Below, piece by piece: positions 16,805 through 64,000 of a stretch of 64,000 bases of DNA (position 1 is its first letter; each line of letters opens with the position of its first letter). The DNA is from Isurus oxyrinchus (taxonomy: Eukaryota), in contig JANJGN010000052.1 of assembly GCA_026770705.1 (NCBI GenBank), positions 62,001 to 126,000 on the forward strand, in the 5' to 3' direction. The position numbers and the translations under genes are program-made. The notes beneath the pieces are model-generated. The model had not been told where the DNA came from. It saw only the letters and a list, made by a program, of their open reading frames with translations, and made no database searches.

Positions 16805-16989
16805 CTACAGAGAAATGGAAACAGAAGACATCCTCACATCATTTACTGGCACTGATAGGGTTAAATTATTGTGCAGCCTCATTAGTGTCAGTCGTGTCTC
16901 AGTGGGTTTAAGCCTTTTTTCACTCTCTTTCTCTGTCTCTCTTTCTCTCTCGCTTTCTCTCTCTCTTTATAATTTAATCTCTATCACAC

Positions 16990-19735: not shown

Positions 19736-19758
19736 AACAAATGTATCTCCACACTCAC

Positions 19759-20040
19759 ATTCCACAGTGATGGTTATGGACCCCTCCACTGCTCCATGTT
19801 CATTCTCTGCCACACACTGATAGTCTCCAGTGTCCCTGGATGTAACGTGAGGAATCACCAACCACAGCTCATTGTTGGAACTTGTTCTGTTCATTGGGAC
19901 ATTAAGATGTCGCCACGTCAGGTTAGAAGCTGGGAAGCTCTCGACAGAGCAGATTATCACTGCAGAATTCTCCTCAATTATATTGATTGATGAAGCGTTA
20001 ATCATATCAAGCGAAGTAAATGAGAGATCCTGTGGTGCAT
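19759..20040 (-). CDS. Module C, membrane-proximal C2-set Ig exon
   Basis: tttttag| acceptor and GAAT|gtgagt donor, 282 nt, phase 1-1. APQDLSF...VIICSVESFPASNLTW...DTGDYQCVAENEHG...ITVE. Confidence 0.9.
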
Positions 20041-20757: not shown

Positions 20758-20821
<64 letters not shown>

Positions 20822-20849
20822 AGTGATGTTGGAGTTTGCAGTAACTCAC

Positions 20850-21130
20850 GTTCCACAGTGATGGTTATGAACCCCTCCACTGCTCCATGTTCATTCTCTG
20901 CCACACACTGATAGTCTCCAGTGTCCCTGGATGTAACGTGAGGAAACACCAACCACAGCTCATTGTTGGAACTTGTTCTGTTCATTGGGACATTAAGATG
21001 TCGCCACGTCAGGTTAGAAGCTGGGAAGCTCTCGACAGAGCAGATTATCACTGCAGAATTCCCCTCAATTATATTGATCGATGAAGCGTTAATCATATCA
21101 AGAGAATTAATTGAGAGATTCTGGGTGCGT
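20850..21130 (-). pseudogene. Module C, middle C2-set exon with a 1-nt deletion
   Basis: 281 nt versus 282 in the two siblings; starts AC GCA CCC AGA instead of AT GCA CCA CAG and hits TGA after about 12 codons in the spliced frame. Splice sites are intact. Confidence 0.75.
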
Positions 21131-21948
21131 CTAAAAGAAATAAAGATTTTAATGTGAGCAAGCATAGTGCACAGCAAGACTCCATGCATCATCTCTCTGT
21201 ATCTGATGTTGGTATGCTTTTCCAGGTACCTTCCCTCATGAAAAATTACTGTCATATTTATAATGGACACTTCCTATGTAAACTGTCACACTGCAGTTGC
21301 TTCCTCCCACCAGTAGAGTTGCTAACCCTCTAGAATGAAAGAAACATCCTTTAACACTCTCAAGATGTCCCCAAGGGCTTGATAGGCAATGAATTGTATT
21401 TGATCGATGGAGCACTGAGGGCTAAATCTACATTTCTCTGTTCAGGAGGTTGCTCATCCAATTCAGGGTCTTGCTGATCTGGAGTTTACCTTCCTTCAGC
21501 ACAGAATGGGAGCTGATACCATGACTCCAGTGCAGAACTGAGAGAGGAGAGGGAGCTCACACTTGTGTGTGTACTTCTGCACGTGAGTTTGTATTTGTGT
21601 GTATGCGCGTGTCTNNNNNNNNNNNNNNNNNNNNNNNNNNNNNNNNNNNNNNNNNNNNNNNNNNNNNNNNNNNNNNNNNNNNNNNNNNNNNNNNNNNNNN
21701 NNNNNNNNNNNNNNNNNNNNNNNNNNNNNNNNNNNNNNNNNNNNNNNNNTGTGCTTGCGGGAGTGTGTGTGCATGTGTGTGTCTATGTGTGCGCATGAAT
21801 GTTTGTATGTGAGTTGAGTTTGTGTGTGTTTCTGTGTATGTGTTTGAACATATGTTTGTGTGTAAGCGTGCATGTTTGTGTCTACACATGAGTGTTTTTG
21901 CATGTGTGAGTGTGTGTGTGAGAGATGTTGAAGTCTGTGTACACTCAC

Positions 21949-22230
21949 ATTCCACAGTGATGGTGATGAATCCCTCCACTGCTCCATGTTCATTTTCTGC
22001 CACACACTGATAGTCTCCAGTGTCCCTGGATGTAACGTGAGGAATCACCAACCACAGCTCATTGTTGCAACTTGTTCTGTTCATTGGGACATTAAGATGT
22101 CGCCACGTCAGGTTAGAAGCTGGGAAGCTCTCGACAGAGCAGATTATCACTGCAGAATTCCCCTCAATTATATTGATCGATGAAGCATTAATCATTTCAA
22201 GAGAAGTAAATGTGAGATTCTGTGGAGCAT
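21949..22230 (-). CDS. Module C, first C2-set Ig exon
   Basis: ttcttag| acceptor and GAAT|gtgagt donor, 282 nt, phase 1-1; near-identical to 19759-20040. Confidence 0.88.
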
Positions 22231-22976
22231 CTAAGAACAAATCAAGTGTTTAATGTGAGCAAGCAGCGTGCACAGCAAGACTCCATGCATCATCTCTCTG
22301 TATCTGATGTCTGTATGCATTTCCAGATACCTTCCCTCCATATAACTTCCACTGTCAAATTTATAATGGGCACTGCCTATGTAAACAGTCAAACTACAGT
22401 TACATTCTCCCACCAGTAGAGGTGCTGTTCACCTAGAATGAAAGAAACTTTCACATCCTCAGGATTTTGCCAAGGGATTTACGGGAATGAATTGTATTTG
22501 ATCGATGGAGCACTGAGGGGTAAATCTACAATTCTCTGTTCAGGAGGTTGCTCATCCAGTTCAGGGTCTTGTTGATCTGGAGTTTACCTTCCTTCAACAC
22601 AGAATCGGAGCTGACACCGAGACTCCAGTGCAGCCCTGAGAGAGAAGAGGGACCTCACGCGTGTTTATGTGTATGTGTTTGTGTTTCTACATATGTGAGT
22701 ATGTTTGTGTGAGTATGCATGCATGTGTCTGTGTGTGCATGTGTGTATGTGTTTGCGCAAATGTGCGTGTGTCTTTGTGTATATTTCTGTGCATAAGTGA
22801 ATGTGTGTACATGTGTATGTGTAGTGTGAGTGTGTGTGTGTGAGTTGAGTGTGTGTATGTTTCTGTGTAGGTTTTTGCACGTGTATGACTGTGTGTAAAT
22901 GTGCATGTATGTGCCTACACATGAGTGTGTGTGTGTGTGTGTGTGTGTGTGTACATGTGTGCATGTGTGCATGTGG

Positions 22977-26816: not shown

Positions 26817-27265
26817 TAACATCCCCTCAGCATCCACCCTGTCAAACCCCCCACCATCTCAGAATCTTATATGTTTCAATAAGATCACCTCTCATTCTTC
26901 TAAACTCCAATGGATACAGGGCCCAACCTGCTCAACATTTCCTCATAAGACAAACCCCCTTCATCCCAGGAATCAGCCCAGTGATCCTCCTCTGAGCTGC
27001 CTCCAATGCAGAGTCTATCCCTCCCTAAGTAAGGAGACCAGAACTCTACACACTGCTCCTGATACAATCTCACCAACACCCTGTGCAGCTGTTGCAAGAC
27101 TTCCCTCCTTTTATACTCCATCCCTTTGCAATAAAGGCCAACATTCCTCTTGCCTTCCTCATTCCGTGGTGTTCCTGAATGCTGACTTTCTGTGATTCAT
27201 GTACAAGGACACCCAGATCCCTCTGTACCGCATTCTGTAGACTCTCTCCATTGAAGTAATATTCT
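26817..27265 (-). mobile_element. CR1 LINE 3' fragment
   Basis: MEYKRREVLQQLHRVLVRL...CVEFWSPYL...LSYEEMLSRLG. Confidence 0.85.
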
Positions 27266-27304
27266 GCTTTTTGATGTCCTGTCCCCTCCCTTGTTGCCTT
27301 TCAG

Positions 27305-27594
27305 GAGTGACGTCAGAGGGATGGTCTATGAAGGCGCTGCCTCGGAGGGCCATCAGCAGCTCTTGTGTGGTTATTCCGTGTAGCTTTGACTTTCCTTCCC
27401 ACTCTTACACAGCACTGCACGGAGCTTGGTATAAATATTGGTATAGATGGAAATATACCATCACATACACCAAAGATCCCAATTATGCGATGGCCACATT
27501 CGTGGGACGAGCTAAAATAATCGGCGACTTGGAAGGGAAGAATTGTTCGGTGGGGATTGACAGTCTCAGAGCTGAAGACAGTGACGTGTATTAC
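27305..27594 (+). pseudogene. MAG/Siglec-like gene D, truncated V-set exon
   Basis: cctttcag| acceptor, phase 1. GVTSEGWSMK...SCVVIPCSFDFP...HGAWY...FVGRAKIIGDLEGKNCSV.IDSLRAEDSDVYY then switches to gag sequence and stops at 27604-27606. Confidence 0.82.
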
Positions 27595-27993
27595 ACCCAA
27601 TTCTAAATCTTTTCACCAATTAGTCGTCCTCATGAAGATGTATTTTCAGCTGAAGCCGTGGGTAATAATGCAGAGGTTTAAGTTTAACTCCAGAGTAAGG
27701 GCCCAGGGAGAGTCCATCGCAACCTATACAGTGAAGTGGAAGCAGGTGACTGAGCACTGGGACCTCGGAGACACACTCAATGACATGTTGCGGGGCCGAT
27801 TGGTTTGTGTTGTTCACCCCAATGCCATTCAGAGCCGTTTACTCGCAGAAGCCGACATCGATTTGAACCGCGCCATGGAAATAGCGCCAGGCATGGAAAG
27901 TGCTGGGAGAGACTGGAGGGATTTACAGGATGTACAACATGGCACCAGTCCTCAGCTGGGACAGGAACCAACCACCGGGCGTGAGGCTCAAAC

Positions 27994-42209: not shown

Positions 42210-42349
42210 TCAAACAGTCTGTCGACTTCCTTTCACTGTTTGTCTCTCCCAGACACAGACTCCAGCGATAGTGATAACCACAGCCACAAGGAATATCACA
42301 GCTCGTATTCCCAGGATCAGGATCACGTGCAGAATCTCTCCTCCACTGT
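42210..42349 (-). CDS. Siglec-like gene B terminal exon: TM with Arg and short tyrosine-free tail (activating type)
   Basis: tttctttctgtgtgttctctag| acceptor, phase 1. (D)SGGEILHVILILGIRAVIFLVAVVITIAGVCVWERQTVKGSRQTV*, Arg codon 42303-42305. This frame is not in the ORF track. Confidence 0.85.
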
Positions 42350-43463: not shown

Positions 43464-43615
43464 GTTCCACAGTGATGGTTATGAACCCCTCCACTGCTCC
43501 ATGTTCATTCTCTGAGCACACTGATAGTCTCCAGTGTCCCTGGATGTAACGTGAGGAATCACCAACCACAGCTCATTGTTGGAACTTGTTCTGTTCATTG
43601 TGATATTCAGATGTC
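43464..43615 (-). pseudogene. Broken C2-set exon remnant in gene B
   Basis: Only the 3' half (HLNITMNRTSSNNELWLVIPHVTSRDTGDYQC) matches the module C exons. The 5' half and acceptor are missing and there is a 1-nt deletion after the Cys codon. Confidence 0.8.
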
Positions 43616-43938: not shown

Positions 43939-44235
43939 CTTGCACAGTTAGTACGAGGGTCCGCTCCGATGCAACAGATGGATATCTCACTCTGCAGCTG
44001 AGAGTGTGTCTGTGGTGTTTGAGTGATGGGATCAGGGTCAGAACAGAAGTATAGGTCAGAGTGACACCATGCTGAGTTACAGTGTTTGAGACTGATCCAC
44101 GTACGTCAGTGGGAGTGTCCCAGGTTAAGACAGGTGCTGCTGTTCCATTGCACGTTGTGTTGAAGGTGCAGCTTACATCCACAGGCTTTCCTGCAATAAT
44201 TTCAGCAGGGAATATCGTGGGTTTATCTGTGAAAT
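43939..44235 (-). CDS. Gene B, domain-2 C2-set Ig exon
   Basis: 297 nt, phase 1-1, canonical splice sites; differs from the gene A exon at about 4 residues. Confidence 0.9.
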
Positions 44236-44963
44236 CTAACAGACGGAGAATGGATCCTTTTAGAGAAATATAACGTGAAGCATCAGTTCAAATAGAAATC
44301 ACAATCCCACAAGAAAAAGCACTTTTACAAGGATGATATCAGATCTGAGAGGTTACAATGATTAGGAGAGAATTTCCTGCTTTGAGACTTTGGTGTTTCT
44401 GTCTCTCAGCTTAATACACGTTCACTCCGAGACACTTGAACTGATAATAGTGGGTGAGGGTGGTGGAGCAGACCAGAGTTTGGAGTGCACTAACCCATCA
44501 GTCCCTCAGCGATCTGGGCCATTTTTTACTTTGCAATTTGTGGGAGCTTGCTGTGTGCAAATTGGTTGCTGTGTTTCCCACATTACAATAGTAACTAAAA
44601 TTCAGGAATCAGCTCATTGGCTGTGAAGTGATTTGGTCCGTGCTGAGGTGGTGAAAAGTGCTACAGAATTGTGAATCTTTCTTCTGTCGCTATGTCAGAC
44701 TTCGAGACAGGATTAGAGAGATCGATGGGAGTGGATAACCTGATAACATTGATGGACACAGTCAATACATTTAATCATTGATATTAAAGTGAGTATTAGA
44801 GGTTGCTTTAGGAGTGAACTGGAAGCTATCACCAGGTTATTGAGAATCAGACAGTGTGTTATAATAAGCTGTGTTTTGTGTTAATATGTAAACGTCACAG
44901 TTTGTGTTATTTCCCATTGAGTGTTGAATGTGAATTGTTGAGTAATTATAACACAGCACTTAC

Positions 44964-45329
44964 CAGAAACGTGAACCTGGGTTACAGGGTAATAGTTATG
45001 GCTCGGACCATTGTCAAATTCTATTCTGAAAAAATAAGGTCCTGCATCTTCCCATGTGATGTTGTTTATAATCAGGGAACAGTCGCCATCTTTCAGGTCT
45101 CCAGACAGCCGGGTCCGATGGTGGAACCGTGGTAACTCGTGACTGTGATCCTTGGAGTGAAAGGCTATAGACGATGTTCTCCATTCCTCATTATTAAGCC
45201 AGACTCCACGTCGCGGTTGGTTTTCCAGACATGATGGATAACTATAATGACATGGAATCTGTACACAGGAACCTTCCTGCACTGTCACCTCTCGTGGAGT
45301 GTCACCTTTCCACTCTTGTGAGGGTTCAG
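44964..45329 (-). CDS. Gene B, V-set exon V4 (next to C2)
   Basis: 366 nt, phase 1-1, ag/gt intact. AEPSQEW...SCVQIPC...WLNNEEWRTSSIAF...PYFFRIEFDNGPSHNYY; Arg present. Confidence 0.88.
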
Positions 45330-47267
45330 CTGGGGAGAGAAATCTCAATATTTAACTCTGAATGGTTTGTGGATCCACTGAACCCGATATTTACAGATGA
45401 GGCTGAATTGGGGGGATGGTCAATACTGAGGAGAATGGCAATAAATTATATTGTCAGGAAGAATAGAAAAACAGGATATAATTTAAATGGTGACAGGCTG
45501 CAGTATGCAGTACAGAGGGATCTGGGTGTCCTGGTACATGAATCACAGAAAGTCAGCATTCAGGAACAACACGGAATGAGGAAGGCAAGTGGAATGTTGG
45601 CCTTTATTGCAAAGGGATGGAGTATAAAAGGAGGGAAGTCTTGCAACAGCTACACAGGGCGTTAGTGAGATTGTAACAGGATCATTGTGTACAGGCAGTT
45701 CAGAGAAGCTTCACTGGGCTGATTCCTGGGATTAAAGGGTTTGTCCTGTGAGGAAATGTTGAGCAGGTTGGGCCTGTATCCATTGGAGTTTAGAAGAATG
45801 AGGGGTGACCTTATTGAAACATATCCGATTCCGAGGGGGCTTGACAGGGTGGATGCTGGGAGGATGTTTCCCCCTCGTGGGGGAATCTAGAACCAGGGAG
45901 CACAGTTTCAGAATGAGGGCTCTCCCATTTAAGACTGAGATGAGGAGGAATTTCCTCTCTCAGAGGGGCGCTAGCCTGTGGAATTCTCTTCCCCAGAGAG
46001 CAGTGGAGGCTGGGCCATTGAATAGACTCAAGGCTGAGTGAGGCAGGTTTTTGATCGACAAGAGAGTCAAGGGTTTGGGGGACAGGCAGGAAAATGGAGT
46101 TAAGGCCACAACCAGATCAGTGAGAGCAGGCTGGAGGGGCCGAATGGCCTGCTCCTGTCCCTATTTCTTATGTTCCTACATTCTTACCTTCTTAAAATAT
46201 TAAAGCTGCAGAATAAACATGCAAGTGACTGACCCGCTCGACCCACCTTCCATCTGGGGGTCCCATGGGGAGGACCCTTCCTGAGCCAGATCCACCAGCC
46301 AACATGGTCTGGATCCGAGCACAGGAGACACGGGGGGGGAGTGACTAACAGGCTCCTTGTGATAGGCCCCGTCTGTCCAATGGCTGGCTTTCAGCTGCCA
46401 AGGCCAGAGTTGTCCTTGCTAAAACCGGCTCAGGACAGGCCAGGACCCCTGTGCAGACCCCCTCCAGCGCTGCAGCCTCTGTACAAACCCCTCATGCGCT
46501 TGTGGAGAGACACAAACAAGGCTGCTCATTACCGAGGAGAATCCCCTCTACAGACTAAGGTGCTGACTCATCACCCTAAACTCGGCAAATGAGGAGGCTC
46601 TCGCTCGGTATCGGGGCTTGGCATTCGCTCAATAAAAATAATCAAATGACATTTTGGTCAGAAATCTAAGGAGGTTGTACATTCCCTCAAAAATAAGACT
46701 CGATCTGGGGTCGAGAGTCAAAGGGCAACAACTTATATTTTCACAACAACTTTAACATGACAAATCACCTCAAGGTGCTACACAGGAGCGTCATAAAACA
46801 AAGTATGTCACCCAGACACATGTGGAGATATTAGCGACAGCTGACCAGAAGAGGTCGGTGTTATGGAGAGACAGAGAGAAAGAGACAGAGAGAGAGAGAG
46901 AGAGAGGGAGAGGAAGAGGGAGAGGGAGAGGTTTAGGGTGGGAAGTCTAGGGTGGTGAAAGGCGCTGTAGAAATGTAAATCTTTCTTCTGTCGATATGTC
47001 AGACTTCAAGACAGGATTTGAGAGATTGATGGGAGTGGATAAACTGATAACATTGATAGACACAGTCAACACATTTAATCATTGATATTAAAGTGAGTAT
47101 TAGACATTGCTTTAGGACTGAACTGGAAGCTATCACCAGGTTATTGAGAATCAGACAGTGTGTTATAATAAACTGTGTTTTGTGTTAATATGTAAACGTC
47201 ACAGTTTGTGTTAATTCCCATTGAGTGTTGAATGTGAATTGTTGAGTAATTATAACACAGCACTTAC

Positions 47268-47636
47268 CAGAAACGTGAAGCTGGGTTACAGGGTAATAGT
47301 TATGGCTCGGACCATTGTCAATTTCTATTCTGAAAAAATAAGGTCCTGCATCTTCCCGTCTGATGTTGTTTATAATCAGGGAACAGTCGCCATCTTTCAG
47401 GTCTCCAGACAGCCGGGTCCGATGGCGGAACCGTGGTAACTCGTGACTGTGATCCTTGGAGTGAAAGGCAATGGGAGCCCAGGGAATCTGTTTCTCATTA
47501 TTAAACCAGAGTCCACCTCGCGGTTGGTTTTCCAGACACGATGGATAACTGTAATGACATGGAATCTGTACACACGAACCTTCCTGAGCTGTCACCTCTC
47601 GTGGAGTGTCACCTTTCCACTCTTGTGACAGTCCAA
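47268..47636 (-). CDS. Gene B, V-set exon V3
   Basis: 369 nt, phase 1-1. WFNNEKQIPWAPIAF...PYFFRIEIDNGPSHNYY; Arg present. Confidence 0.85.
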
Positions 47637-49573
47637 CTGGGGAGAGAAATCTCAATATTTATCTCTGGATGGTTTGTGGATCCACTAGACTCAAAATTTA
47701 CAGATGAGGCTGAATTGGGGGGATGGTCAATACTGAGGAGAATGGCAACAAATTATTTTGGCAGGAAGAATAGAAAAACAGGATATTATTTAAATGGAGA
47801 CAGGCTGCAGAATGCAGTACAGAGGGATCTGGGTGTCCTTGTACATGAATCACAGAAAGTCAGCATTCAGGAACACCACGGAATGAGGAAGGCAAGTGGA
47901 ATGTTGGCCTTTATTGCAAAGGGATGGAGTATAAAAGGAGGGAAGTCTTGCAACAGCTGCACAGGGCGTTAGTGAGATTGTAACAGGATCATTGTGTACA
48001 GGCAGTTCAGAGAAGCTTCACTGGGCTGATTCCTGGGATTAAAGGGTTTGTCCTGTGAGGAAATGTTGAGCAGGTTGGGCCTGTATCCATTGGAGTTTAG
48101 AAGAATGAGGGGTGACCTTATTGAAACATATCCTATTCCGAGGGGGCTTGACAGGGTGGATGCTGGGAGGATGTTTCCCCCTCGTGGGGGAATCTAGAAC
48201 CAGGGAGCACAGTTTCAGAATGAGGGCTCTCCCATTTAAGACTGAGATGAGGAGGAATTTCCTCTCTCAGAGGGGCGCTAGCCTGTGGAATTCTCTTCCC
48301 CAGAGAGCAGTGGAGGCTGGGCCATTGAATAGACTCAAGGCTGAGTGAGGCAGGTTTTTGATCGACAAGAGAGTCAAGGGTTTGGGGGACAGGCAGGAAA
48401 ATGGAGTTAAGGCCACAACCAGATCAGTGAGAGCAGGCTGGAGGGGCCGAATGGCCTGCTCCTGTCCCTATTTCTTATGTTCCTACATTCTTACCTTCTT
48501 AAAATATTAAAGCTGCAGAAAAAACATGCAAGTGACTGACCCGCTCGACCCACCTTCCATCTGGGGGTCCCATGGGGAGGACCCTTCCTGAGCCAGATCC
48601 ACCAGCTAACATGGTCTGGATCCGAGCACAGGAGACACGGGGGGGAGTGACTAACAGGCTCCTTGTGACAGGCCCCGTCTGTCCAATGGCTGGCTTTCAG
48701 CTGCCAAGGCCAGAGTTGTCCTTGCTAAAACCGGCTCAGGACAGGCCAGGACCCCTGTGCAGACCCCCTCCAGCGCTGCAGCCTCTGTACAAACCCCTCA
48801 TGCGCTTGTGGAGAGACACAAACAAGGCTGCTCATTACCGAGGAGAATCCCCTTTACGGACTAAGGGGCTGACTCATCACCCTAAACTCAGCAAATGAGG
48901 AGGCTCTCGCTCGGTATCGGGGCTTGGCATTCGCTCAATAAAAATAATCAAATGACATTTTGGTCAGAAATCTAAGGAGGTTGTACATTCCCTCAAAAAT
49001 AAGACTCGATCTGGGGTCGAGAGTCAAAGGGCAACAACTTATATTTTCACAACAACTTTAACATGACAAATCACCTCAAGGTGCTACACAGGAGCGTCAT
49101 AAAACAAAGTATGTCACCCAGACACATGTGGAGATATTAGCGACAGCTGACCAGAAGAGGTCGGTGTTATGGAGAGACAGAGAGAAAGAGACAGAGAGAG
49201 AGAGAGAGAGAGGGAGAGGAAGAGGGAGAGGGAGAGGTTTAGGGTGGGAAGTCTAGGGTGGTGAAAGGCGCTGTAGAAATGTAAATCTTTCTTCTGTCGA
49301 TATGTCAGACTTCAAGACAGGATTTGAGAGATTGATGGGAGTGGATAACCTGATAACATTGATAGACACAGTCAACACATTTAATCATTGATATTAAAGT
49401 GAGTATTAGACATTGCTTTAGGACTGAACTGGAAGCTATCACCAGGTTATTGAGAATCAGACAGTGTGTTATAATAAACTGTGTTTTGTGTTAATATGTA
49501 AACGTCACAGTTTGTGTTAATTCCCATTGAGTGTTGAATGTGAATTGTTGAGTAATTATAACACAGCACTTAC

Positions 49574-49942
49574 CAGAAACGTGAAGCTGGGTTACAGGGT
49601 AATAGTTATGGCTCGGACCATTGTCAAATTCTATTCTGAAAAAATAAGGTCCTGCATCTTCCCGTCTGATGTTGTTTATAATCAGGGAACAGTCGCCATC
49701 TTTCAGGTCTCCAGACAGCCGGGTCCGATGGCGGAACCGTGGTAACTCGTGACTGTGATCCTTGGAGTGAAAGGCAATGGGAGCCCAGGGAATCTGTTTC
49801 TCATTATTAAACCAGAGTCCACCTCGCGGTTGGTTTTCCAGACACGATGGATAACTGTAATGACATGGAATCTGTACACACGAACCTTCCTGAGCTGTCA
49901 CCTCTCGTGGAGTGTCACCTTTCCACTCTTGTGACAGTCCAA
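49574..49942 (-). CDS. Gene B, V-set exon V2
   Basis: 369 nt, phase 1-1; protein identical to V3 except IEFD versus IEID. Confidence 0.85.
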
Positions 49943-52084
49943 CTGGGGAGAGAAATCTCAATATTTATCTCTGGATGGTTTGTGGATCCACTAGACTCAA
50001 AATTTACAGATGAGGCTGAATTGGGGAGATGGTCAATACTGAGGAGAATGGCAACAAATTATTTTGGCAGGAAGAATAGAAAAACAGGATATTATTTAAA
50101 TGGAGACAGGCTGCAGAATGCAGTACAGAGGGATCTGGGTGTCCTTGTACATGAATCACAGAAAGTCAGCATTCAGGAACACCACGGAATGAGGAAGGCA
50201 AGTGGAATGTTGGCCTTTATTGCAAAGGGATGGAGTATAAAAGGAGGGAAGTCTTGCAACAGCTGCACAGGGCGTTAGTGAGATTGTAACAGGATCATTG
50301 TGTACAGGCAGTTCAGAGAAGCTTCACTGGGCTGATTCCTGGGATTAAAGGGTTTGTCCTGTGAGGAAATGTTGAGCAGGTTGGGCCTGTATCCATTGGA
50401 GTTTAGAAGAATGAGGGGTGACCTTATTGAAACATATCCAATTCCGAGGGGGCTTGACAGGGTGGATGCTGGGAGGATGTTTCCCCCTCGTGGGGGAATC
50501 TAGAACCAGGGAGCACAGTTTCGGAATGAGGACTCTCCCATTTAAGACTGAGATGAGGAGGAATTTCCTCTCTCAGAGGGGCGCTAGCCTGTGGAATTCT
50601 CTTCCCCAGAGAGCAGTGGAGGCTGGGCCATTGAATAGACTCAAGGCTGAGTGAGGCAGGTTTTTGATCGACAAGGGAGTCAAGGGTTTGGGGGACAGGC
50701 AGGAAAATGGAGTTAAGGCCACAACCAGATCAGCGAGGGCAGGCTGCAGGGGCCGAATGGCCTGCTCCTGTCCCTATTTCTTATGTTCCTACATTCTTAC
50801 CTTCTTAAAATATTAAAGCTGCAGAATAAACATGCAAGTGACTGACCCGCTTGACCCACCTTCCATCTGGGGGTCCCATGGGGAGGACCCTTCCTGAGCC
50901 AGATCCACCAGCCAACATGGTCTGGATCCGAGCACAGGAGACACGGGGGGGAGTGACTAACAGGCTCCATGTGACAGGCCCTGTCTGTCCAATGGCTGGC
51001 TTTCAGCTGCCAAGGCCAGAGTGGTCCTTGCTAAAACCAGCTCAGGACAGGCCAGGACCCCTGTGCAGACCCCCTCCAGCGCTGCAGCCTCTGTACAAAT
51101 CCCTCATGCGCTTGTGGAGAGACACAAACAAGGCTGCACATTACCGAGGAGAATCCCCTCTACGGACTAAGGGGCTGACTCATCACCTTAAACTCAGCAA
51201 ATGAGGAGGCTCTCGCTCGGTATCGGGGCTTGGCATTCGCTCAATAAAAATAATCAAATTACATTTTGGTCAGAAATCTAAGGAGGTTGTACATTCCCTC
51301 AAAAATAAGACTCGAGCTGGGGTCGCGGGTCAAAGGGCAACAACTTATATTTACACAACAACTTTAACATGACAAATCACCCCAAGGTGCTACACAGGAG
51401 CGTCATAAAACAAAGTATGTCACCCAGACACATGTGGAGATATTAGCGACAGCTGACCAGAAGAGGTCGGTGTTATGGAGAAACTTAAAAGAGGGATGAA
51501 ATGGTTAGTGAGAGAGAGAGAGTGAGTGTGAGGGATGGAGAGGGCTTAAGGGAGGGTATTACGGAGCTCGGTCCCCAGGCAGCTGAAGGCATGGCCACCG
51601 ATGTTAGAGTGTTGAGATCGGGGGATGGTCAAGAGGCTGGAATTGGAGGAGCGCAGAGACCTCTGAAGGTTGGTGGGTCTGGAGGAGGTTACAGAGATAG
51701 GGAGGGTTGTAGGGGCTGGAGGAGGTTACAGAGATAGGGAGGGGTGTAGTGATTGGAGGAGTTATAGTGATAGGGAGGTTTGTAGGGGCTGGAAAAGTTA
51801 AGAGAGATTGGGAGAGTGTAGGGTCTGGAGGAGTTTGCAGAGGTCGGGAGGGTTGTAGTGACTGGGGCAGGTTACAGGGGCAGGGAAAGTTGTCGGGACT
51901 GGAGCAGGCTACAGAGATAGGGAAGCTTTTAGGGGCAGGAGGAAGTTACAGAAATAGGGAGATTTGTTGTGGCTGGAGGAGGTTGCAGAGATTGGTAGGT
52001 TTGTTGGGCAGGATGAATTTACAGATATAGGGAAGCGGTAGAGGCTTGAAGAGGTTACAGAGAATGGGATGTTTGTAGGTACTG

Positions 52085-53100
52085 GAGGAGGACGAGGAGA
52101 TTACAGGGATAGTGAGGAAACAAAGATGAAAATTTGGACGTTGACATTTTGCTTGACCAGGAGCCAGTCTCGGTCATCGAGCAGAGCGGGTGATAAGGGA
52201 ATGGGACTTGGTGTGAGTAAGGACGTGGTCAGCAGTTTTGGATGGCCTCAAGTTTATGGAGTGTAGAGCGTGTGTTGGAACAGTCGAGACTGGAGGTAAT
52301 GAAGGTGTGGATGAGGGTTTCAGCAGCAGATGAGCTGAGACAGGGTGACGTCGTGCGATGTTACGGAGGTGGAAATAGACGGTGTTAGTGAGGGCGCAGA
52401 TAGGAGGCCGGAAGCTCATCTCAGGATCAAATGGGACAACAAAGCTGTGAACAGATTGGCTTCAATCTCAGAGAGCTGCCAGGGAGAGGAATGGAGTTGG
52501 TAGCGAGGGAACAGAGTTTGGAGCGGGGAATGAAGACAATGGCTTCAGTCTTTCCAATATTTAATTGGAGGGAATTTCTGCCCATCCAGTACTGGATGTC
52601 GGATAAGCAGCCTGATAATTTAGCAGCAGTGGAGGAGTCGAGAGAGGTGGTGGTGAGGTAGAGCTGGGGATCCTCAGTGGACAGGTGAAAACTAACACTG
52701 TTCAGATGATGCTGCAAAGCCATTGCAAGTGATTCTCTGGCTACGATGAGATGGATAAGAATGGAGCCAGGGGAGAGCAGTCCCACCCAGCTGGACGACA
52801 GTGGAGAGGTGTTGGAGGAGGATGGTGTGGTCGAGCGTGTCAAAGGCTGCAGACAGATCGAGAAGGACGAGGAGGGAAAGTTGACCTTTGTCACAGTCAC
52901 ACAGGATGCCATTTGTGACCTTGATAAGAGCTGTTTCAGCACAGTGGCTGGGGTGGGAACCTGATTGGAGGGATTCAAACATGGAGTTCCGGGAAAGATT
53001 TGAACAGATTCGGGAGATGGAAACAGGTTGCAGGACTTTGGAGGGGAAAGAGAGGCTGGAGTTGGGACGGGGGTTTACACGGACAGTGTGAGGGGTGGAA
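52085..53100 (-). mobile_element. L2-type LINE RT fragment
   Basis: QSG..PSHCAETALIKVTN.IL....LLVLLDLSAAFDTLDH.ILLQHL, LQLNIGKTEAIVF, YFHLRNIAR. Confidence 0.85.
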
Positions 53101-53346
53101 GGTGTAGTGGGGAGGAGATACTTCACTCAGGGGGGAGGTGTCATCACCCCTCAGCTCGGTTTATGTTACAGCTATGATGTGGATTCAATCACACACAATA
53201 AGCTTATGGATCTGGGAGCAGAAATAGACAAATCATTAAAAATAGTGGCGCTGTTTAACACGGCCAAAAAACAAGCAAATCAAACACTATTATTTCCCAC
53301 TGAGTGTTGGATGTGAATTGTTGAGTAATTATATCACAGCACTTAC

Positions 53347-53721
53347 CAGAAACGTGAAGCTGGGTTTCAGGACGGTCATTGTATCTATTCCTGTTGTCAA
53401 ATTCTAGGCTGAATAAATAATATCCTGCATCTTCCCGTCTGATGTTGTTTATAATCAGGTAACAGTCGCCATCTTTCAGGTTTCCAGACAGCCGGGTCCG
53501 ATGGTGGAACTGTGGTAACTCGCGATTATGATCCTTGGAGTGAAAGGCTATAGACCGTTCATTCCATTTTTCCCAATTCCTTCTCATATACCAGATTCCG
53601 ACTGGTGATCTCGCTACTAAATATGATGGATAACTGTAATTACATGGAATCTGTACACACGAACCTTCCTGCGCTGTCACCTCTCCTGGAGTGTCACCTT
53701 TCCACACTTGTGATAGTCCAA
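53347..53721 (-). CDS. Gene B, V-set exon V1 (next to leader; essential Arg replaced by Ser)
   Basis: 375 nt, phase 1-1, open, ag/gt intact. WYMRRNWEKWNERSIAF...GYYLFSLEFDNRNRYNDRP; Ser codon 53408-53410. Confidence 0.85.
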
Positions 53722-54124
53722 CTAGGGAGAGAAATATCAATATTTAACTCTGAATGTTTTCTCAATCCACTAGACTCAATATCCACCCCCTCCATCACTG
53801 GGGCACACAGGCTGCAGTCTGGATAATCCACAGGTCACACAATGAATGCCCCAAGGTTTCACAACAGATTGAAGAGAATTCCGGACACAGGAGTGGACAA
53901 GTTCATTCTAAATTGGCTCATGACCCTCAGGTACCTATTTAGTGAAGTCAGTCTGCCACCCAACACAGTGTCTACAAGACACACTAATTGAAGTGAGTTC
54001 ACTGCTGATTTACAACGTAGGACAATGGATTAGGAGCCTTCAGAATTCCCCCATTATCACCATCATGAATCATGAATTGGCCTAGCTGTCCTAGATCCTC
54101 AGTGTCTAAGGCAGTGGTTCCTAT

Positions 54125-55050
54125 TGTGATGTAAGTATAATAATTTTCATAATATTTTATAGTATATTGTGAAGTAGGTTTATGGGGGTACGCGTGATGG
54201 GTCTGCATGTGATTTAAGTACATTTGGAGTTAATTAGATTGGAAGTTTAAAATGATCAAAAGGAGCTAGGTGCTTGACATGCTATTGAGGAAACATGGAT
54301 GCTGCTTAGCATGGAAGGTATGAAGAGAATTTGCATTTTTCTATCAATGAAGGGGTTGTTGGATTTCAAAGGAATCTTAGCTTGTTTACAACTAGCCAGA
54401 TAAGCAAGACTAAGGAATGTGTTTATTTTTCTCAAAGGCTCCTGGCAATATGGGCACCACGAAAGAGTTTGTTATGTGCAAGATACAGTTTCAAAAACAT
54501 ATGGAACAATAGAATTTTCATGTTACAAAGAGAGAAATATATATCTATCAGGGAGAATGAAAGGCTATGTGTCAGAATGCCATGTAAGATCTAACACGAG
54601 TGTGTGATATAGTCTTAATGAAACCTCTAGCATTTGTGCACAAGCCTGCTATCCAACAGAACTGAAGTTGGGGAAAAGCCACTTGGAATTCCTCTGTGCA
54701 GGGTATTGCTTTTATATTGTGTTAACTTGCTGGGTTTGTTTTAAATATAAAGTCTATTTTTGGACTGTTGCCTTAAAGGGAGTGTAACTGGGAGTCAGTT
54801 TAATTCAGAATTTTAAGAATTATTATAGTGGTAATTGTAGAGTTATGTATGTGCTTCAAATCATTTATTTTGAGAGCAAGTATTTTAATTTAATTTTCAA
54901 ATCGCTAAAGGTCTTTGTGTAATTATGGCTTCTGAATTCAGTGCACACATCTCATAATAAATACAAATTGCAAAATCATTATGATCATGTGACCACCATT
55001 CTCTCATGGACTTGGTCTGCCTGGCACACATCACCTGCCAAGTGATAACA
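54125..55050 (+). mobile_element. Solo LTR (same family as 15370-16264)
   Basis: TGT...ACA termini, ctat/ctgt flanks, AATAAA near the 3' end. Confidence 0.72.
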
Positions 55051-55054
55051 CTGT

Positions 55055-56371
55055 TGTAATATGCCTTTCAGGGACAGCAGCATGACATCACTCGAGGGGA
55101 AGTGTGTCATGTGATTTTAGGAATTGGGTATAGCTTAAGTAAGTTCTATGTGTATTTGTGTGTGTTAGGGATAAGGTATATGTTTAAGTTCAAGTTTAGT
55201 TTGATTTCTGTATTTGTGTGTTAAGAAAGGGGGAAACTTCAGTTTTGGTTTCATTTTCGTTTAGCAATCTAATGGGGTTTGATGCCTCTTGAAGGAAAGT
55301 CAAAACAAACACAATGTGTAGGAAACTGTGCTATTGCTAAGCAACAGTGATCCAGAGGGACGGACCCATAGAGACAGAGAAAAACAGAAATGTGCTTTCA
55401 GTTTGGTTGAAAGGAGTTGCCAGGAGAAGCAGCATAGGAGGGGGACAGATAGTCAGTCCCAAAGTAAAGAAGAAGCCAAAACTATCGAGTGGAACAGGAG
55501 AAAGAGCCAAGAAGACCTTCTACTCCAAAGAAGATCAGGAATCTGAAAAAGGTCCTGTTAAGTCGAGATAAGATTGAGGAGCAGAGGAGGGATCCAAGCT
55601 AAAAGAGAAAAAGCAAAAGGACACAGACCTAAAGCAAAAAAGGCTGATTAGAAGCCAGAAGATCATAGGAGACAGCTAAATGTTGATGTCTTCTTACTAT
55701 GACCATGTGAAGCCATGGTGTTCCATTGGCATGACTGAACATTGGAAAGACAACGCGTAGAAGGAAGGCTGAATGCATGTGGCGATCCAGGGGGCAGGAA
55801 CATGGGAAGGAGAGTTTGAAATCGTGGAAGTGGACCCTTGTGGAAGGTCTCTGAGTGAAAGTGTCATGTTAGAGAAGATTCCAAAGAGAGCACTTGGTGA
55901 GTAGAGATTGGAAACTCTCATGTGAAAGATACAGTTTTGTAAGACCAGTTGCCTCATGGTGAAACAAGTGTCTGGAGTCAGTTGAGCTGAAACCCATAGC
56001 ATTTGTTCCAATTGGGGTCTATCACTTGGTTACAGAATGTGGTGTCCCTGACACCAGGTCGTCTATTGGTTTGCATGAGCTGTGTACTTAGTGTGAACAT
56101 GAGAGTATAAGATAGTTATTGTAACTTGTATTCTACTTATGAATCTGTAAATGTATAGGTCTGGGTGAAGGAATAATGTAATATAGTTTGTCTTTCCTAG
56201 TTTAATAAATGTTTTATTCTTTTGTTAGAAGGTCATCAGATGATTCCTGTGACTCTGTTCAGTAGCAGCACTCCACATTCCTAAATAAAAAATAAAAGTT
56301 AGGACCTATCAAGCTGAGTTCCACCCTGGGATCTGACTTGCCCAGTAGTAACATCAGCTGGGATGATAACA
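55055..56371 (+). mobile_element. Second, different solo LTR-like element
   Basis: TGTAAT...ATAACA termini, AATAAA at ~56204 and ~56284, flanks ctgt/ccat. Confidence 0.62.
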
Positions 56372-56559
56372 CCATCCAGTCCAAGTTTCACTTTGGCCTG
56401 TGAGCAGAACACAGCTCACACAGTTTGGCTGCAGGTGTCTCCCAGCTTTCTATCCTTGTACATCTGTTCTCATGTCCCCATTCTAAATAACTGAACCCAC
56501 AATGTAATTACGCAATTCCGTATCAGTGGCTGGTGCCTTTATATCATTATAAAAACACA

Positions 56560-59500
56560 ACATGGTGATCAGCGGTGGCCAAACATTCTGGCCGCAAGAT
56601 TCAGTACAGGTATGACATGGTGAACAGCCTGAGATCGAGCTACATGACATGAGATGACCCTCGACGCTTTGGTCAGACCACAACAGAGACACAGCATCAG
56701 AGAGGGTTGAAATCGCAGTGTACTGACTCTCAGGAAACCTTTGAAGACACAGTGACGGGAAAGAGCTCAAGTAAAGAGCTGGGGAGCAGACGGATCCCTC
56801 GTGGTGGGATTACAGCACACGGCCTGTAGGTCAGTGAGTGGGACAGTGTGTATCGCCAGGACCAGCAGCGGGTTAGCTCAGTCAGGGAAGGCGAGTGACC
56901 CGGGTGTGGGCTGGATCGATAGTGAGCGAGGGAGAGTCAAACACACAAAAACCATTATAAAAATCAGCCCAGAGAAGTTAGTGATTATAACGGGCGGCTT
57001 CGAGATTGCTGAACAGCAAATTGAATAAAAAACAAAGACTCCATTACTCCGTGGTGTGTTCCTGCCACAACCCGTCTTCGTGGGCGGAGCTTCGGAAAAG
57101 CACACAAAAGGGGCTAAAGCGACACTCATCCCAGGTCCTGTAGGAGAAGGAAGGTCAAAGGAATATTGTCAGAATGTCCACGAAATTCCCCAGTTTGAAC
57201 TGGGATGTAGCTGACCGACTATCTGAATTCAGAATGTTTAAACAGCGTACAGAGCTCTGGTTTCCTGATTCAGGTGTGACTGAACCAGACGAACAAGCCA
57301 TAAAAATTCACCTCGTGATTGGGAATGAAGGTCTACACAGGCTGAACACGTCAGGATTAACAGCAGAAGAGCGAAAGGATCCCCAATAGATATGGACGAT
57401 ATTGGAAGACAGGTTCAGAATCAGGTGAAACTCCATATTCATCAACTAGAGTTTATGTCATTTCATCAGCCTACACAATCCATAGACCACTTCATCAGCC
57501 GATGTAGAGAAAAGGGTACGCACTGTGATTTCAAACACAGAGCCTGCAGACACAGTTGTTGAGTTGGTGATCGCATCCACTCCCATGGAAGCCTTCCAGA
57601 AAGATCTGCTAGATAAGACCAAAACCTATAGCATTGAAGAGCTACTCAAGGATGGACATAAATACGAAGTGATCCTCGCAGGTCAACGAAGCTTACAGGA
57701 CCTCAGTACAACATCAATTGTTGACACACTCACTAGAACATCCAAACCTAGTGAGACGTGTGGAAGGTGTGGCCTTCTGCAGGCACCAAGGAAATGCCCA
57801 GCTTTCCACCAATCCTGCAAGGCTTGTGGCAGAAAGGGCCAGTGACAGCGGCAGAGCACTAGAGCAAAGGCTGATGCAGCTGCAAAGAGCCGTGCGCTGA
57901 TCCAAACAGACCCTACACAACGGGGAACCTTCAATCAATAAGAATGACCATCCGCTATCCCATCAGGAACATATACATGTGGTGACTGACAAACCAGGAA
58001 ATGGCGATGATGTGCACGGCGAGACGAGGTGCGGTGATCGATATTCCACCTCTCACACATATCCTGTCGTGGCTTGCCAATAAATTGTGGATTGTTGTCC
58101 TTAATGATCTCTCTGGGCACATCAAATAAACTGAAAATGTCCCATAGTGGTAGGATTTTCTGGCCCCACCCACTGCCAGGATTGTCCGGTCCGGCCGAAA
58201 GCCAATGGATTTATATTTGTCCCAATCTCCCAAGGCAGGTCCCACCATGACCGGGCCGGAAAACCCCGGCCTAGAGTTTGTGCAACATTTGTGCTCAACG
58301 TTTTGTGCAATTGTTGAACAATTTCACACCTTTTACACCATCGATCTCACGGAGAACAGATGCTGTCACATCACCCGCACTATTGGCCAAGATTCCAATT
58401 ATCTGCCCTGAGAAAGTGGCTACCTCCCCTTTATTGGCCAAGAGTGACACAAGGGCAAGTGCCAACATTCCCCTCCCCCAGCCCACCCCAGCAAATTTTC
58501 AAAGACATATATCCAAGGACATGGAAGTCCATGGGGAAACCTACTGCTGTGTACAACACTTCACCAACTCCATGTGCGGAATCCATAGTCTTGGGGTGCA
58601 AGTACAATCAATCCTCCTGGGTGTCACAGATGTTCTACATTGTGGAGACTAAAGGCTGAGCAATTGCAAGTCTACCGGCATGCGGTGACCTCACACTAGT
58701 GACTATCCATGGAATCTGTCAGACCTGACATGGGTCAACCTCAGAAACTACCCCATCAACTCAGTTCATGGACATAACATTGAAATATGCAGAAAGTTTC
58801 AACAGTATTTGTAGTTTCAAGGGAGCTGCAACATTACACCTGCAGGAGAATGCAAGTCTGTCAATTGATCCAGTACATTTAGCACAACAGAAATGCCAGC
58901 AGCTACAAGAGGGAACAGTGAAAAATTCTACAGGAACTGTGGAAATATCATTGAAAGGGTGGCTGATTCAACTTGACGTCATCAGGAATAGTGAGGCATC
59001 TCCCAGGGAGTCATTTTTAATGGCAGGCATCGCATCATACCGGAACCTTTGTGATGATATATTCTTCAACAACTTCATCCCTCACACATGGGCACAGATC
59101 AGACAGGGAGACTCACAAGAGATACAGTCACTGGCCGGGTATGAACAATGACCTTGAAGTCGTTGTAGGGAAGTTCGAGGCTTGTCAAGAGGATGAGCCA
59201 AGTCAACATAAAGAACCACTGATTCCACAGGAAATTCCTGCCTATTCTTAGTCCAAATTCACATCTGAATCCTTTCATGTCCATGTCACTGACTTCATCG
59301 TCATCGTCGACAGCTTTACCAGATATCCCGTTATTCAAAAATAACACAACACACCGAGCACTACTGGTGCACACATTCTAAGCACTATTTTCAGTTTATT
59401 TGGTGAGCCTAGGGACATGAGTACATATAATCTGGAATATCAATCACACAACTTCTTCTCCTCATTACCCCAGATCTAACGGCCTAGCTGAATGAATGAT

Positions 59501-60450
59501 TCACACCAGTGAAATCCCTAATTCTCAAATGTAGACAGACCAAGCAAGATCCACACATTGCAATGTTACATCTGAGATCAACACCTACAACTGCAACTTT
59601 GTTAAATTCATTCATGGGATGTGGGAGTCACTGGTCAGGCCAGGATTTATTACCCATCCCTAATGTAAGAGTCAACCACATTGACGTGGAGTCTGGAGTC
59701 ACATGTCGGCCAGGCAATTTTGTTCCCTAAAGGGCACTGGTGAACCAGGTGGGATTTCCAACAATGGTTTTGTGGTCATCACTAGACTTTGAATTTCATC
59801 TTTTTATTAAATTCAAATTCCATCATCTATTATGGCAGGATTTGAACTCATATTTTCAGGACATTACCCTGGGTCTCTGAATTACTCATCCAGCAACAAT
59901 ACCACTACACCATCACCTCACCTTATTGCATCACTGACAGAGATCATGTTTGGTGGGCCAGTAGTGACCAATTTCGCTATTCTTACCCATTCTACTCTCT
60001 CAGAAACCAGAGGGCAACTTTTAAAACTACAAGAGAAGATAAGGAATGTTCATGATAAAAATGGAGGTGCACAGTTGCCAAGTTTACAGTTGGGACAAGT
60101 TCACATCCAGGATCCCACAGAAGGTTCATGACCACCAGCCGAGATGACAAGGATTTTTCAGAACCAAGGGCCTATGGAGTCAAACACACAAGGGCACAGC
60201 GGTGAGGCGGAACTGAGGATAAATCAGATCCATTCCCGCTCCTATTCCAACGAGGAGAAGATCCCACATGAAATCAGGAACAACATCCAAGGGTGACAAT
60301 CCCACAGATCACTGTGAGCAGTTAAAGACACCTCCAGACAAGGTAACCAGCACAAGATCTGGGTGGACCAGAAGGTCAAATCCACACTTTAGAGACTCAA
60401 ATATTCAACAGTTCCGTACACTTATGTAATTGTCAATAAATATGAACATG
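56560..60450 (+). mobile_element. Degenerate, internally rearranged Gypsy-type retrotransposon
   Basis: PBS-like caaca|TGGTG at ~56561, gag from 57174, knuckle CGRCG...CPA...CKACGRKG, integrase remnants (HWPGMNNDLE...CQE, SSPHYPRSNGLAE, IAMLHLRSTP). Confidence 0.75.
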
Positions 60451-61448
60451 ATATGAGAAACCGCTTGCTCCCTATCCTTCTCAAAGATCCATTCCTGCAG
60501 CAGGAGCCTGAAGAGTTATTGAAAAGGGACTTAATTTATCGAATTTTAGAATGATCCGGAACAGAAGGAAGCCATTTGGCCCATCGACCCTGTGCTGGGC
60601 CTTTGAAAGATCTGTCCAATTATTCCCACTCTCACCTCTGCTCTCTCCCCCACAGCCCTGCAAAATGTCCCCTTCAAGTATTTATCCAGTTCCCCTTCTG
60701 AAAGTTCCTGTTGAATCTGCTTCCACCGCCCTTTCAGGCAGTGAGTCAATGGTCTCTCTCTGAGCTGCAAAGTGATAAGTTTCAATGAAATATAAACTCT
60801 GCAGCAGATCAGAAACAATCATGATAACTCAGAATATTTGACAGTTTTACATACAGACAGCTTTGCCTCCCTTCTCTCTATCAGTTATCTTGCTATCTTA
60901 TCGAATTTTCTAGCATGGTGAGAAGGGACAGGAAGTGTGACGCTGAACTGCCTGTCTAATCTAAGAGCTTCTGTGTTGTCTTCATGGGAAATTCTGATGA
61001 AAATCAGCAAGAGAGAAACATTTCAGGGCATTGATATCGGAGTGCTTGCATCAGGATAGACTTCATCCCCCAGTTTTTATCCCTGCTTCTCTATTCAGCC
61101 GATCGCTCCCCTGTCACTCGCTGACCTACACTGGCTCCCAGTCCAGCAAAGCCTCAATTTTCAAAATCTCTTCAATGATTCCTTATCCCTCCATCCTCCC
61201 TCTCTACTCCCTGTCACTGTCACCTCCTCCAGCCCTGAAACCCTTTGAGGTCTCTGCTGTCCTGCAGTTCTGCTGTCAGACAGGGAGTCAGTGTATATCA
61301 GTGAGCACAGGGGTGATGGGTGAATGGGACTTGGTGTGAGTTTGTACACTGGCTCACTGCTGAATCGGTTCCCTATCAGAGCTCAATAAGAATGACCTTT
61401 TACAAAGACTATTAGCCATAAGTCTGTCCGAGCTGACGATGATATTAC

Positions 61449-61488
61449 CTTGGAGAAGTGACAGGAGGAAGTAATATTTCCCGATCAT
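61449..61488 (-). CDS. Gene B, leader exon coding part (whole exon 61449-61528)
   Basis: MIGKYYFLLSLLQ with G|gtaata donor, phase 1. The region ~60480-62070 is collinear with gene A ~4270-5780. Confidence 0.88.
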
Positions 61489-61936
61489 TGTCCACTCCCA
61501 GATATTCCTTTAGCTTCTCACTCTCAAACTGTGAAAGAGAAAGGAGTTAATGAGACCTCACCTCTTGTCCGACAGCTCTCGAGAGATCAGAACTGCTTTT
61601 AGACAATGTCTTCACAGACTAATTTGGTTCTCTGTGGGATGATAGGTGCTCTGCAGAGTTAAAAAGCTTTAAAAAAATAAATCAATGAAGGACTTGCATT
61701 TCTATATCGCCTTTCACCTCCTCAGGATGTCCCAAAGCTCATGTCTCTGCACTTCCCTCATCCCTTGAGCTAGAAAGATGTTCTGTACAACAGACTTGAG
61801 TCTCACACCCAGATCTCAATAATCAGTAGAAATCTTGCAAAGGCATCAATCATTGGAATCTGTCTTTATAAAGTCACATCATCAACAAAGGACGGTGTTG
61901 GTGGTGGAAGTGAATTCCAATCGTTCCGTTACTTAC

Positions 61937-62699: not shown

Positions 62700-64000
62700 A
62701 CTGAAATCGGGCTGTGCCTCATGCAGTGATTATAAATATAATTTCCATCCTAATAACCGAAGCAGTCCCCTCGAAGAATGCTGCAGTTTGGAAGAGTTGA
62801 TCCTTTCGACCTAACGGTGTGCGATTGGTCTCATTATGGTGAACCTCTCGCGTTCTTTTTCCAAGTGAATGACATTGATGGGGAGGAGAAGAGGCGAGCG
62901 ACCCTCTTATCCACGTGTGGGAGTAAGACTTAAGGATTGATGCGAACTTTAATGTCACCCGGTGCCATGGATTCAAAAAGTTTAGATGATATAGTGAACC
63001 TTGTGAAGATTCCTTCCCAGCCCCAGCCCTCGGTAACGATGCAACGGTCCAAATTTAACTCAAGAAATAGAGTCCCAGGGGAGGCAGCTGCATGTTATGT
63101 GGAAATTCTGAAACAGTTCACAGGACATTGTGAGTTTGGTAAATCTATAAATGATATGCTGAGAGATCGACTGGTGTGCAGTATAAATGAAGATTCGATT
63201 CAGAAGAGATTACTGTCTGAAACAGATTTGGATATTCAGAAAGCTCTGGGAATAGTGCTGGCTATGGAAAGAGCAGTGAGGGACTCGAAAAACATATGGA
63301 GAGTGCAAAATGTCACCGTCCTCATGTTGGGTGAGGAGCCTCAGCCAAGAAGTGCGGGAAAATGTACAGCTCTGATGAGAAGCGGGAAACCTCCACCACT
63401 AGCAGCAAATAAAAAGGAATGACTTTGCAGAGAAAACATGGAATAATGGGAACAGAGGTAAAGCAGACAACCTCGTAGTGAATGGAACTTTAAAAAAACA
63501 ATTGTTTTTACTGTCAACGAAACAGAGAGCCCATGAGAGATTGCAAGGATAGAATCAGGCAGAGTTTCAATCAAGAGAGAAAACCCTGTGAGATCCATAA
63601 CATAGAAGAGCCTGAAGTAACAGATTCAGATAGTTATTCATTGTATAATTTAAAGGTAGGAAGAACAGAGCCAATCTATGTAACAGTGAGGGTGAATGAT
63701 AGAGCTCTCAGAATGGGGGTGGACACAGGAGCTAACACTACGCTAATTGGTGAGCATACTTTCAAATACTGGTATCATGGGGAAAGTCAATTAAATTTGG
63801 AAGAAACAGATGACTAATTGAAAAGTTACACGGGAGAAGACATTCAAGCCAAAGACATAAGCAGGGTTATTTTACAGTATGGAAGTCAATCAGTAAAATG
63901 ACCCTTGATGATGGGAGCTGGTGAGGGACCAAGCCTCCTTGGACGAAACTGGTTGAAAGATATTAAACTGGATTGGTCTGAGATCTTCCAACTGAGAGCC
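62700..64000 (+). mobile_element. Degenerate Gypsy-type gag-protease, running off the right edge
   Basis: MQRSKFNSR...INDMLRDRLVC.IN...IQKRLL, protease VDTGA, GPSLLGRNWL. Confidence 0.87.

Follow-up and report, generated by a model that had tools for sequence, protein, structure and literature searches.

The window considered here is a stretch of 64,000 nucleotides from the shark Isurus oxyrinchus (GenBank assembly GCA_026770705.1, contig JANJGN010000052.1, positions 62,001 to 126,000), and its minus strand carries a real, intact-looking multi-V Siglec-like gene that lies inside a very large shark cluster. The gene runs in the order leader, four open V-set (V) exons, one C2-set (C2) exon and one transmembrane (TM) exon, and the V exons are numbered V1 to V4 from the leader. 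Its features are given below in window positions; the RNA contigs named (by run, X2 to X4) are matched at the level of the family, among hundreds of near-copies with paralogs 85-99% identical.

61449..61488, minus strand: leader exon, with ATG, 13 codons plus one base and a phase-1 donor; spliced in RNA contigs to a VGLSQ-type V start (X2, X3, X4)
53347..53721, minus strand: V1, the tip domain, 375 nt; interdomain Cys present, BC-loop Cys absent, F-strand Arg replaced by Ser
49574..49942, minus strand: V2, internal type, 369 nt; F-strand Arg; extra BC-loop Cys at codon 49842-49844
47268..47636, minus strand: V3, internal type, 369 nt, of which 368/369 are identical to V2; extra BC-loop Cys at codon 47536-47538
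44964..45329, minus strand: V4, internal type with an AEPSQ start, 366 nt; extra BC-loop Cys at codon 45229-45231; in RNA contigs an AEPSQ-type start follows directly on a V 3' end
44647..51544, no strand assigned: three head-to-tail copies of a 2.3 kb unit, each of one V exon plus intron; the unit junction is common to six other loci on the contig
43939..44235, minus strand: C2-set domain 2; Siglec interdomain Cys at codon 44150-44152, six residues past the B-strand Cys and aligned with the C159/C165 pair of MAG
43465..43613, minus strand: C2 pseudo-exon, 5'-truncated and frameshifted; the same remnant precedes the Arg-type TM exon in many paralogs
42210..42349, minus strand: TM exon, with an Arg within the hydrophobic span, then a short tail that has no Tyr motifs, and a stop codon; 95% like the tail of the white shark model P0020

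Exon structure and Siglec identity

The first-pass annotation of this DNA had described four open V exons with intact splice sites between a single leader and a single C2 exon, each starting with the tail of the signal peptide (VGLSQ or AEPSQ) and carrying the Cys that bonds to domain 2, and this description holds. V1-V4 are all open, with lengths that are multiples of 3, phase 1-1 boundaries, AG acceptors with a pyrimidine tract and GTAAGT donors; no leader or C2 exon was found between them at the locus; three start with VGLSQ and one with AEPSQ, the signal-peptide tail being encoded on the V exon throughout the Siglec-like family; and each holds a Cys whose sequence pattern is of the type that bonds to domain 2. 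The introns are all GT-AG and measure 1.9-3.4 kb. To this anatomy we add the TM exon (42210-42349), in which the Arg lies toward the outer end of the span, the Ser in place of Arg in V1, and a fourth Cys in V2-V4, at a site where V1 has Tyr (codon 53621-53623). The acceptor of the C2 exon is visible in RNA, with V-to-C2 junctions in contigs of X3, X4 and X7, and we infer the C2-to-TM splice on the basis of phase and of public models, P0020 among them. If all exons are joined in order, the predicted product has 651 amino acids. The nearest named proteins are from white and basking shark (93-97% identity), and public annotation labels such shark relatives automatically as Siglec-12/13-like.

All four V domains score above the cut-off for Pfam V-set and Ig_CD22, and among solved structures they come closest to Siglec-5/7/8, CD33, MAG and sialoadhesin (E 1e-11 to 1e-15; best 1.5e-15), with Siglec-5/7/8 outscoring MAG by only ~7 bits. 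The predicted structure of a relative, P0015 from basking shark, matches the sialoadhesin V domain (Z 17.8, root-mean-square deviation (rmsd) 1.8). By sequence the gene matches the features of a Siglec: a Siglec-type V-set, an odd V Cys with a matching C2 Cys, V followed by C2, and a single charged TM segment. The V-C2 interdomain disulfide at the locus is predicted from this Cys pattern and the alignment with MAG. The F-strand Arg of V2, V3 and V4 aligns with that of Siglec-5/7/8, and its retention suggests that these domains may bind sialic acid, whereas V1 has Ser there. Among 20 leader-first V exons this site is Arg in 13, Thr in 5 and Ser in 2; the essential Arg is thus absent in 7/20 leader-first exons versus 1/27 internal exons.

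The extra BC-loop cysteine of internal V domains

Siglec V domains have three Cys, the first of which bonds to a C2 Cys six residues past the B-strand Cys. In the available excerpts of the two sources, MAG C37-C165 is such an interdomain bond, from the first V Cys to the C2 Cys (PMC5150538), and C46-C172 is the interdomain bond of Siglec-6 (PMC10122656). The fourth Cys of V2-V4 lies seven residues past the B-strand Cys (hereafter +7), in the BC loop, and is placed like the interdomain Cys of C2. From general immunoglobulin (Ig) topology the BC loop is expected to face the upstream domain.

The +7 Cys follows the position of the exon. In the 1.056 Mb of contig read contiguously in this genome, from which 57 intact V exons of 70 were used (7 broken and 6 unparsed exons being dropped), it occurs in 25/27 internal, 0/21 first and 1/9 single V exons. 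Public shark and ray models, after 6 partial domains were dropped, carry it in 38/49 internal domains, 0/27 first domains (one with a Cys at +4) and 1/84 single domains, and the genera with the +7 Cys are ten, taking in rays and a sawshark (Carcharodon, Cetorhinus, Scyliorhinus, Mustelus, Chiloscyllium, Hemiscyllium, Rhincodon, Pristiophorus, Mobula and Hypanus). Among the further tandem-V proteins described below, none of the Siglec-type ones with the BC segment listed has it. Several Cys-free leader-side V exons share 94-97% identity with Cys-bearing exons, with His, Tyr, Arg or Asp at the site; such near-twins, with four different residues, suggest that the Cys is maintained according to exon position despite sequence exchange.

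Parity points the same way. With the exons in series, all 18 ectodomain Cys can pair, whereas direct splicing of the leader to V2, V3 or V4 would leave one Cys unpaired. From position and parity, then, V-V disulfides are predicted for a multi-V receptor. In the AlphaFold model of P0015, a V-V relative, both domains are well folded and the linker is not; the V-V pair aligns with two-domain Siglec structures over both domains (Siglec-10, 208 residues, rmsd 4.1; MAG, 204 residues, rmsd 6.2), which is compatible with a V-V bond, not proof of one.

Other arrangements of cysteines occur among tandem-V models. In the ray four-V models P0011 and P0017, the internal domains 2 and 4 are without the BC-loop Cys; in them an extra Cys follows the C-strand Trp, and the essential Arg is replaced by Lys. 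A three-V model of Xenopus laevis (P0173) has two internal V domains with an extra Cys near the A strand, where its first V has none, possibly a convergent route to a pairing interdomain Cys.

The classes of V exon also differ in variability. The ratio of replacement-site to synonymous-site divergence (pN/pS) is 0.81 in first V exons, 0.54 in internal and 0.32 in single ones, and replacement-site divergence is about three times as high in first as in internal exons (pN 0.126 versus 0.041). An excess of replacement changes over the whole V domain is not shown by pN/pS, and pN/pS values >1 in the core region rest on few synonymous sites and are not relied on.

Splicing of the V exons and copy number of the unit

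Evidence on how the V exons are joined comes from runs that exist solely as assembled contigs and whose RNA nature is a guess; introns are highly covered, X14 is probably DNA, depth is uninformative and missing joints are no evidence. For positions 49400-61600, leader-to-V joints occur in X2, X3 and X4 and V-to-C2 ends in X3 and X4, and both kinds of joint are equally well explained by single-V paralogs. In three X2 contigs found with the V4 exon as query, the sequence runs on from an AEPSQ-type V start into 11 letters with a match to a V exon's 3' end. The 12-mer of this 3' end occurs 83 times in the DNA examined, always before a V donor GT, and the V-V joined form occurs 0 times in 1.26 Mb of DNA. 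AEPSQ-type starts are internal in 15/15 cases; among the matches listed, leader letters stand only on VGLSQ-type starts (X2, X3, X7), and with the V4 exon as query no leader-to-AEPSQ junction is found among them. X2 also holds an 86-nt contig identical to V4.

The first-pass annotation had left two readings: a multi-V receptor, or a choice of one exon of four that would diversify ligand specificity. The V-V junction and the Cys pattern speak for the first, and we consider it probable that the four V exons are spliced in series into a multi-V Siglec-like receptor, likely an activating one. A mutually exclusive, Dscam-like cassette choice draws on the presence of one leader and one C2 exon that flank four exons, each able to splice to both in frame, and on the leader-to-V and V-to-C2 junctions, for which single-V paralogs account equally well. 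Set against it are the V-to-V junction, which is the one joint that strict exclusion forbids, short as it is and seen in one run at family level; the near-identity of V2 and V3, which would be alternatives differing in a single residue; and the unpaired Cys that three of the four choices would leave. We found no barrier of frame, intron length, spliceosome type or docking site that would enforce exclusion; a simple scan of the pre-mRNA for docking-selector complements, which may miss short or bulged pairings, gave only 13-16 nt matches outside repeats (E 0.075-4.6) and repeat-derived ones. The position-linked Cys of ten genera would also be left without an explanation, and cassette choice is in our judgement very improbable.

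A further possibility is that splicing of variable length is the main mode, the V exons often being skipped to give receptors with one to four V domains. Four phase 1-1 exons with near-identical splice sites would permit this, any form that keeps V1 being in frame with all Cys paired; the V-V junction is compatible with it; and the annotated isoforms of a white shark gene include forms with and without the first V (P0013 versus P0132). On the other side, all 15 listed isoforms of a basking shark multi-V model retain the same seven V domains, the contigs listed lack a leader-to-AEPSQ joint, and the V1-skipping model may stem from reads of single-V paralogs. As the main mode it is unlikely, although some skipping is plausible because exceptions such as the V1-skipping white shark model exist, and every form that keeps V1 would be fully paired.

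The third alternative concerns the DNA itself: the locus might be a silent or defective by-product of duplication, or the copy number of V2 and V3 an error of assembly, with only relatives expressed. V2 and V3 are one base, and so one residue, apart (V4 differs from them at 29-30 bases, and V1 is ~81% identical to V2-V4), many broken genes are found in the cluster, as are large segmental repeats, and the RNA evidence can be assigned only to the family. Yet all exons are open with intact splice sites, the V4-identical contig of X2 stands against silence, and the V2 and V3 units differ at 27/2190 positions. The 300 bases across the unit junction have matches at six other loci of the contig (94.6-100%), which hold one first-type V each together with 2, 3, 4, 4, 5 or 6 internal ones; the same Arg-type TM exon closes every one of these loci, and five of them lie in blocks picked for holding arrays. 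V exons spaced 2.3 kb are also present on other contigs of the genome. Because the unit junction recurs at six loci with differing copy numbers, the array is a family feature and the idea that V2 and V3 are uncollapsed haplotypes, which had been named as grounds for rejecting the first-pass annotation, is unlikely. The exact V count at the locus rests on the assembly; a silent or misassembled copy seems to us quite improbable.

Several observations weigh against serial reading with V-V bonds. The V-V junction consists of 11 loose letters in 3 contigs of one run, matched at family level and below the 31-letter bridging rule; it is absent in X3, X7 and X14 among the matches listed, and a V1-to-V2 joint is absent among the 15 of 224 joints listed. 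The +7 Cys is missing from 2/27 internal exons here and 11/49 in public models, one intact single-V gene of this genome carries it, and four white shark models (P0132, P0134, P0138 and P0146), one of which is the V1-skipping isoform, put a Cys-bearing V right after the leader; the paralogs are related and their counts not independent, so that Fisher values overstate the case. In the P0015 model the linker has a predicted local distance difference test (pLDDT) score <50 and the predicted template modelling score (pTM) is 0.44, and the V-V disulfide is a prediction. Public models are automatic predictions. In a tree of 149 V domains the classes cluster (14 changes for the internal class versus 49.9 when shuffled), in a quick tree only, which is poorly resolved with 69/146 branches open and single-V public domains thinned to about a third, and which neither shows nor excludes a single origin of the internal V class.

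If the exons are read in series, the leader, four in-frame V exons, C2 exon and Arg-bearing TM exon would give one long receptor. Each V would offer the Cys at the start of its B strand to the domain below, as in all Siglecs, and the internal V domains would have gained the BC-loop Cys as acceptor, a job normally done by the C2 Cys. V1, of the more variable class and without the sialic-acid Arg, would form a variable tip on a stiff, conserved stalk of V2-V4, which keep the Arg and are possibly multivalent for sialic acid. By analogy with mammalian Siglec-14/15/16, the TM Arg would bind an adaptor with an immunoreceptor tyrosine-based activation motif (ITAM) for signalling, with paralogs whose tails bear an immunoreceptor tyrosine-based inhibitory motif (ITIM) and whose ectodomains are near-identical as the counterpart. 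The number of internal domains, which ranges from 2 to 6 at sister loci, may be set by unequal crossing-over of the 2.3 kb exon-plus-intron unit.

The shark cluster and known receptor systems

Exact motif matches across the genome number 438 leaders, 602 V and 466 C2 (reversed controls 0), counts that include pseudogenes and possible assembly duplicates or duplicated haplotypes. They are lower bounds, because the exact leader motif recovers 30 of the 44 leaders found by similarity in the 1.056 Mb read contiguously. The 44 leader-anchored units of this unbiased ~1 Mb sample include 38 with V exons: one V in 16 units, two in 19, and three, four and five in a single unit each, so that 22/38 have at least two; three units were reassigned by hand where a C2 separates their V exons. 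The family has three kinds of tail, among them an ITIM-bearing and an Arg-TM type. Of the public models matched with V3, 29/113 have adjacent V domains, in runs of 2-7; adjacent V domains also occur in 31/133 of a further protein set, and ten tandem-V proteins that were looked up come from primates, tree shrew, lynx, turtle, frogs and bony fish; tandem-V Siglec-like models are not confined to sharks.

Around the gene, the window holds a minus-strand paralog with one V at 2070-5209 (leader 5170-5209; V 2768-3136, with Arg and no BC-loop Cys; C2 ~2070-2360), whose remaining C2 exons and TM are located beyond the left edge of the window. At 16559-22250, also on the minus strand, are three C2 exons, a TM exon and an ITIM-bearing tail without a leader or V of their own, an orphan block that could be a remnant or an alternative inhibitory tail of the upstream gene. 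As the four-V gene's own tail these ITIM exons (16.5-22.3 kb) are not needed, since the gene already has an intact, stop-containing TM exon 1.6 kb past C2. The order of an Arg-TM gene followed 22-25 kb on by an orphan inhibitory block recurs on contig C52 at ~250-281 kb and 572-600 kb. An inverted, truncated V-exon fragment of another Siglec class (27250-27600, plus strand; 31% identical; YxYTQF and then a stop) has the same position at sister loci. Degenerate gag/pol remains like those of a long terminal repeat (LTR) retroelement, with many stops, lie on the plus strand at 57100-60400 and 62900-64000, in and upstream of the first intron (judged from open reading frames). Elsewhere on contig C52, extra leader exons either precede a second leader by ~2 kb or have no V at all (51543, 220257, 718856 and 1048773), and the same gene and pseudogene order appears twice (365-460 kb and 911-1000 kb), as a ~90 kb segmental duplication or an assembly duplicate.

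Taken together, the data lead us to favour, somewhat cautiously, the view that sharks and rays have an undescribed paired Siglec-like receptor system, with several hundred genes in this shark, in which a variable tip class and a stackable internal V class are combined, an added Cys extends the V-C2 disulfide to a V-V chain, and receptor length and sialic-acid valency are tuned by the copy number of a 2.3 kb unit, the whole being older than the shark-ray split. In the open literature searched, a scope that leaves out most subscription journals, we found no description of a shark Siglec expansion or of V-V disulfides, and the accessible portion of the whale shark genome paper has a single mention of Siglecs, with no detail (PMC8455134). 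In the usual picture Siglecs have one V (Siglec-12 excepted) and form small families, and the shark family departs from both. It would be a case from early vertebrates in which paired activating and inhibitory receptors have expanded, and its position-linked Cys suggests how the Siglec V became a stackable module, which could guide the design of multivalent glycan binders.

The gene resembles CD33-related Siglecs (Siglec-5, -7, -8, CD33) and MAG/sialoadhesin in V-set type, Cys pattern, the Arg of V2-V4, the interdomain Cys of C2 aligned to MAG C165 and the type I membrane layout; unlike them it has four V exons, a tip without Arg, internal BC-loop Cys and hundreds of paralogs. Siglec-12 is described, in the excerpt available, as the only Siglec with two V-set domains (PMC7876704). 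It shares with the shark gene tandem V exons, which in the shark gene are probably read in series as well; in contrast, shark sister loci have up to seven V exons, the tail of Siglec-12 is inhibitory whereas the shark gene has an Arg-type TM and a short tail, and the second V of a primate Siglec-12 (P0245) is without Cys at +7. Siglec-14/15/16, according to the portion of the source available, carry a positive charge in the TM segment, lack an ITIM and have ITIM-tailed relatives alongside (PMC6829431); they and other paired Siglecs are like the shark gene in the charged TM residue, the lack of an ITIM and the ITIM-tailed relatives with similar ectodomains, and differ from it in that the shark TM Arg lies toward the outer end of the span. 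Mouse pregnancy-specific glycoproteins, for which the available excerpt gives 3-8 IgV-like N domains from intragenic exon duplication (PMC546212), likewise combine duplication of V exons within the gene, a multi-V protein and an expanding family, but they belong to the CEA family, are secreted and are without the Siglec Arg or the Siglec interdomain Cys. Dscam-type arrays consist of tandem duplicated Ig exons between constant exons. The shark locus shares this arrangement and, unlike these arrays, belongs to a family in which a V-V junction is seen, has near-identical alternatives and shows no exclusion device that we could find; the idea of a vertebrate lectin with Dscam-like exon choice finds no support here.

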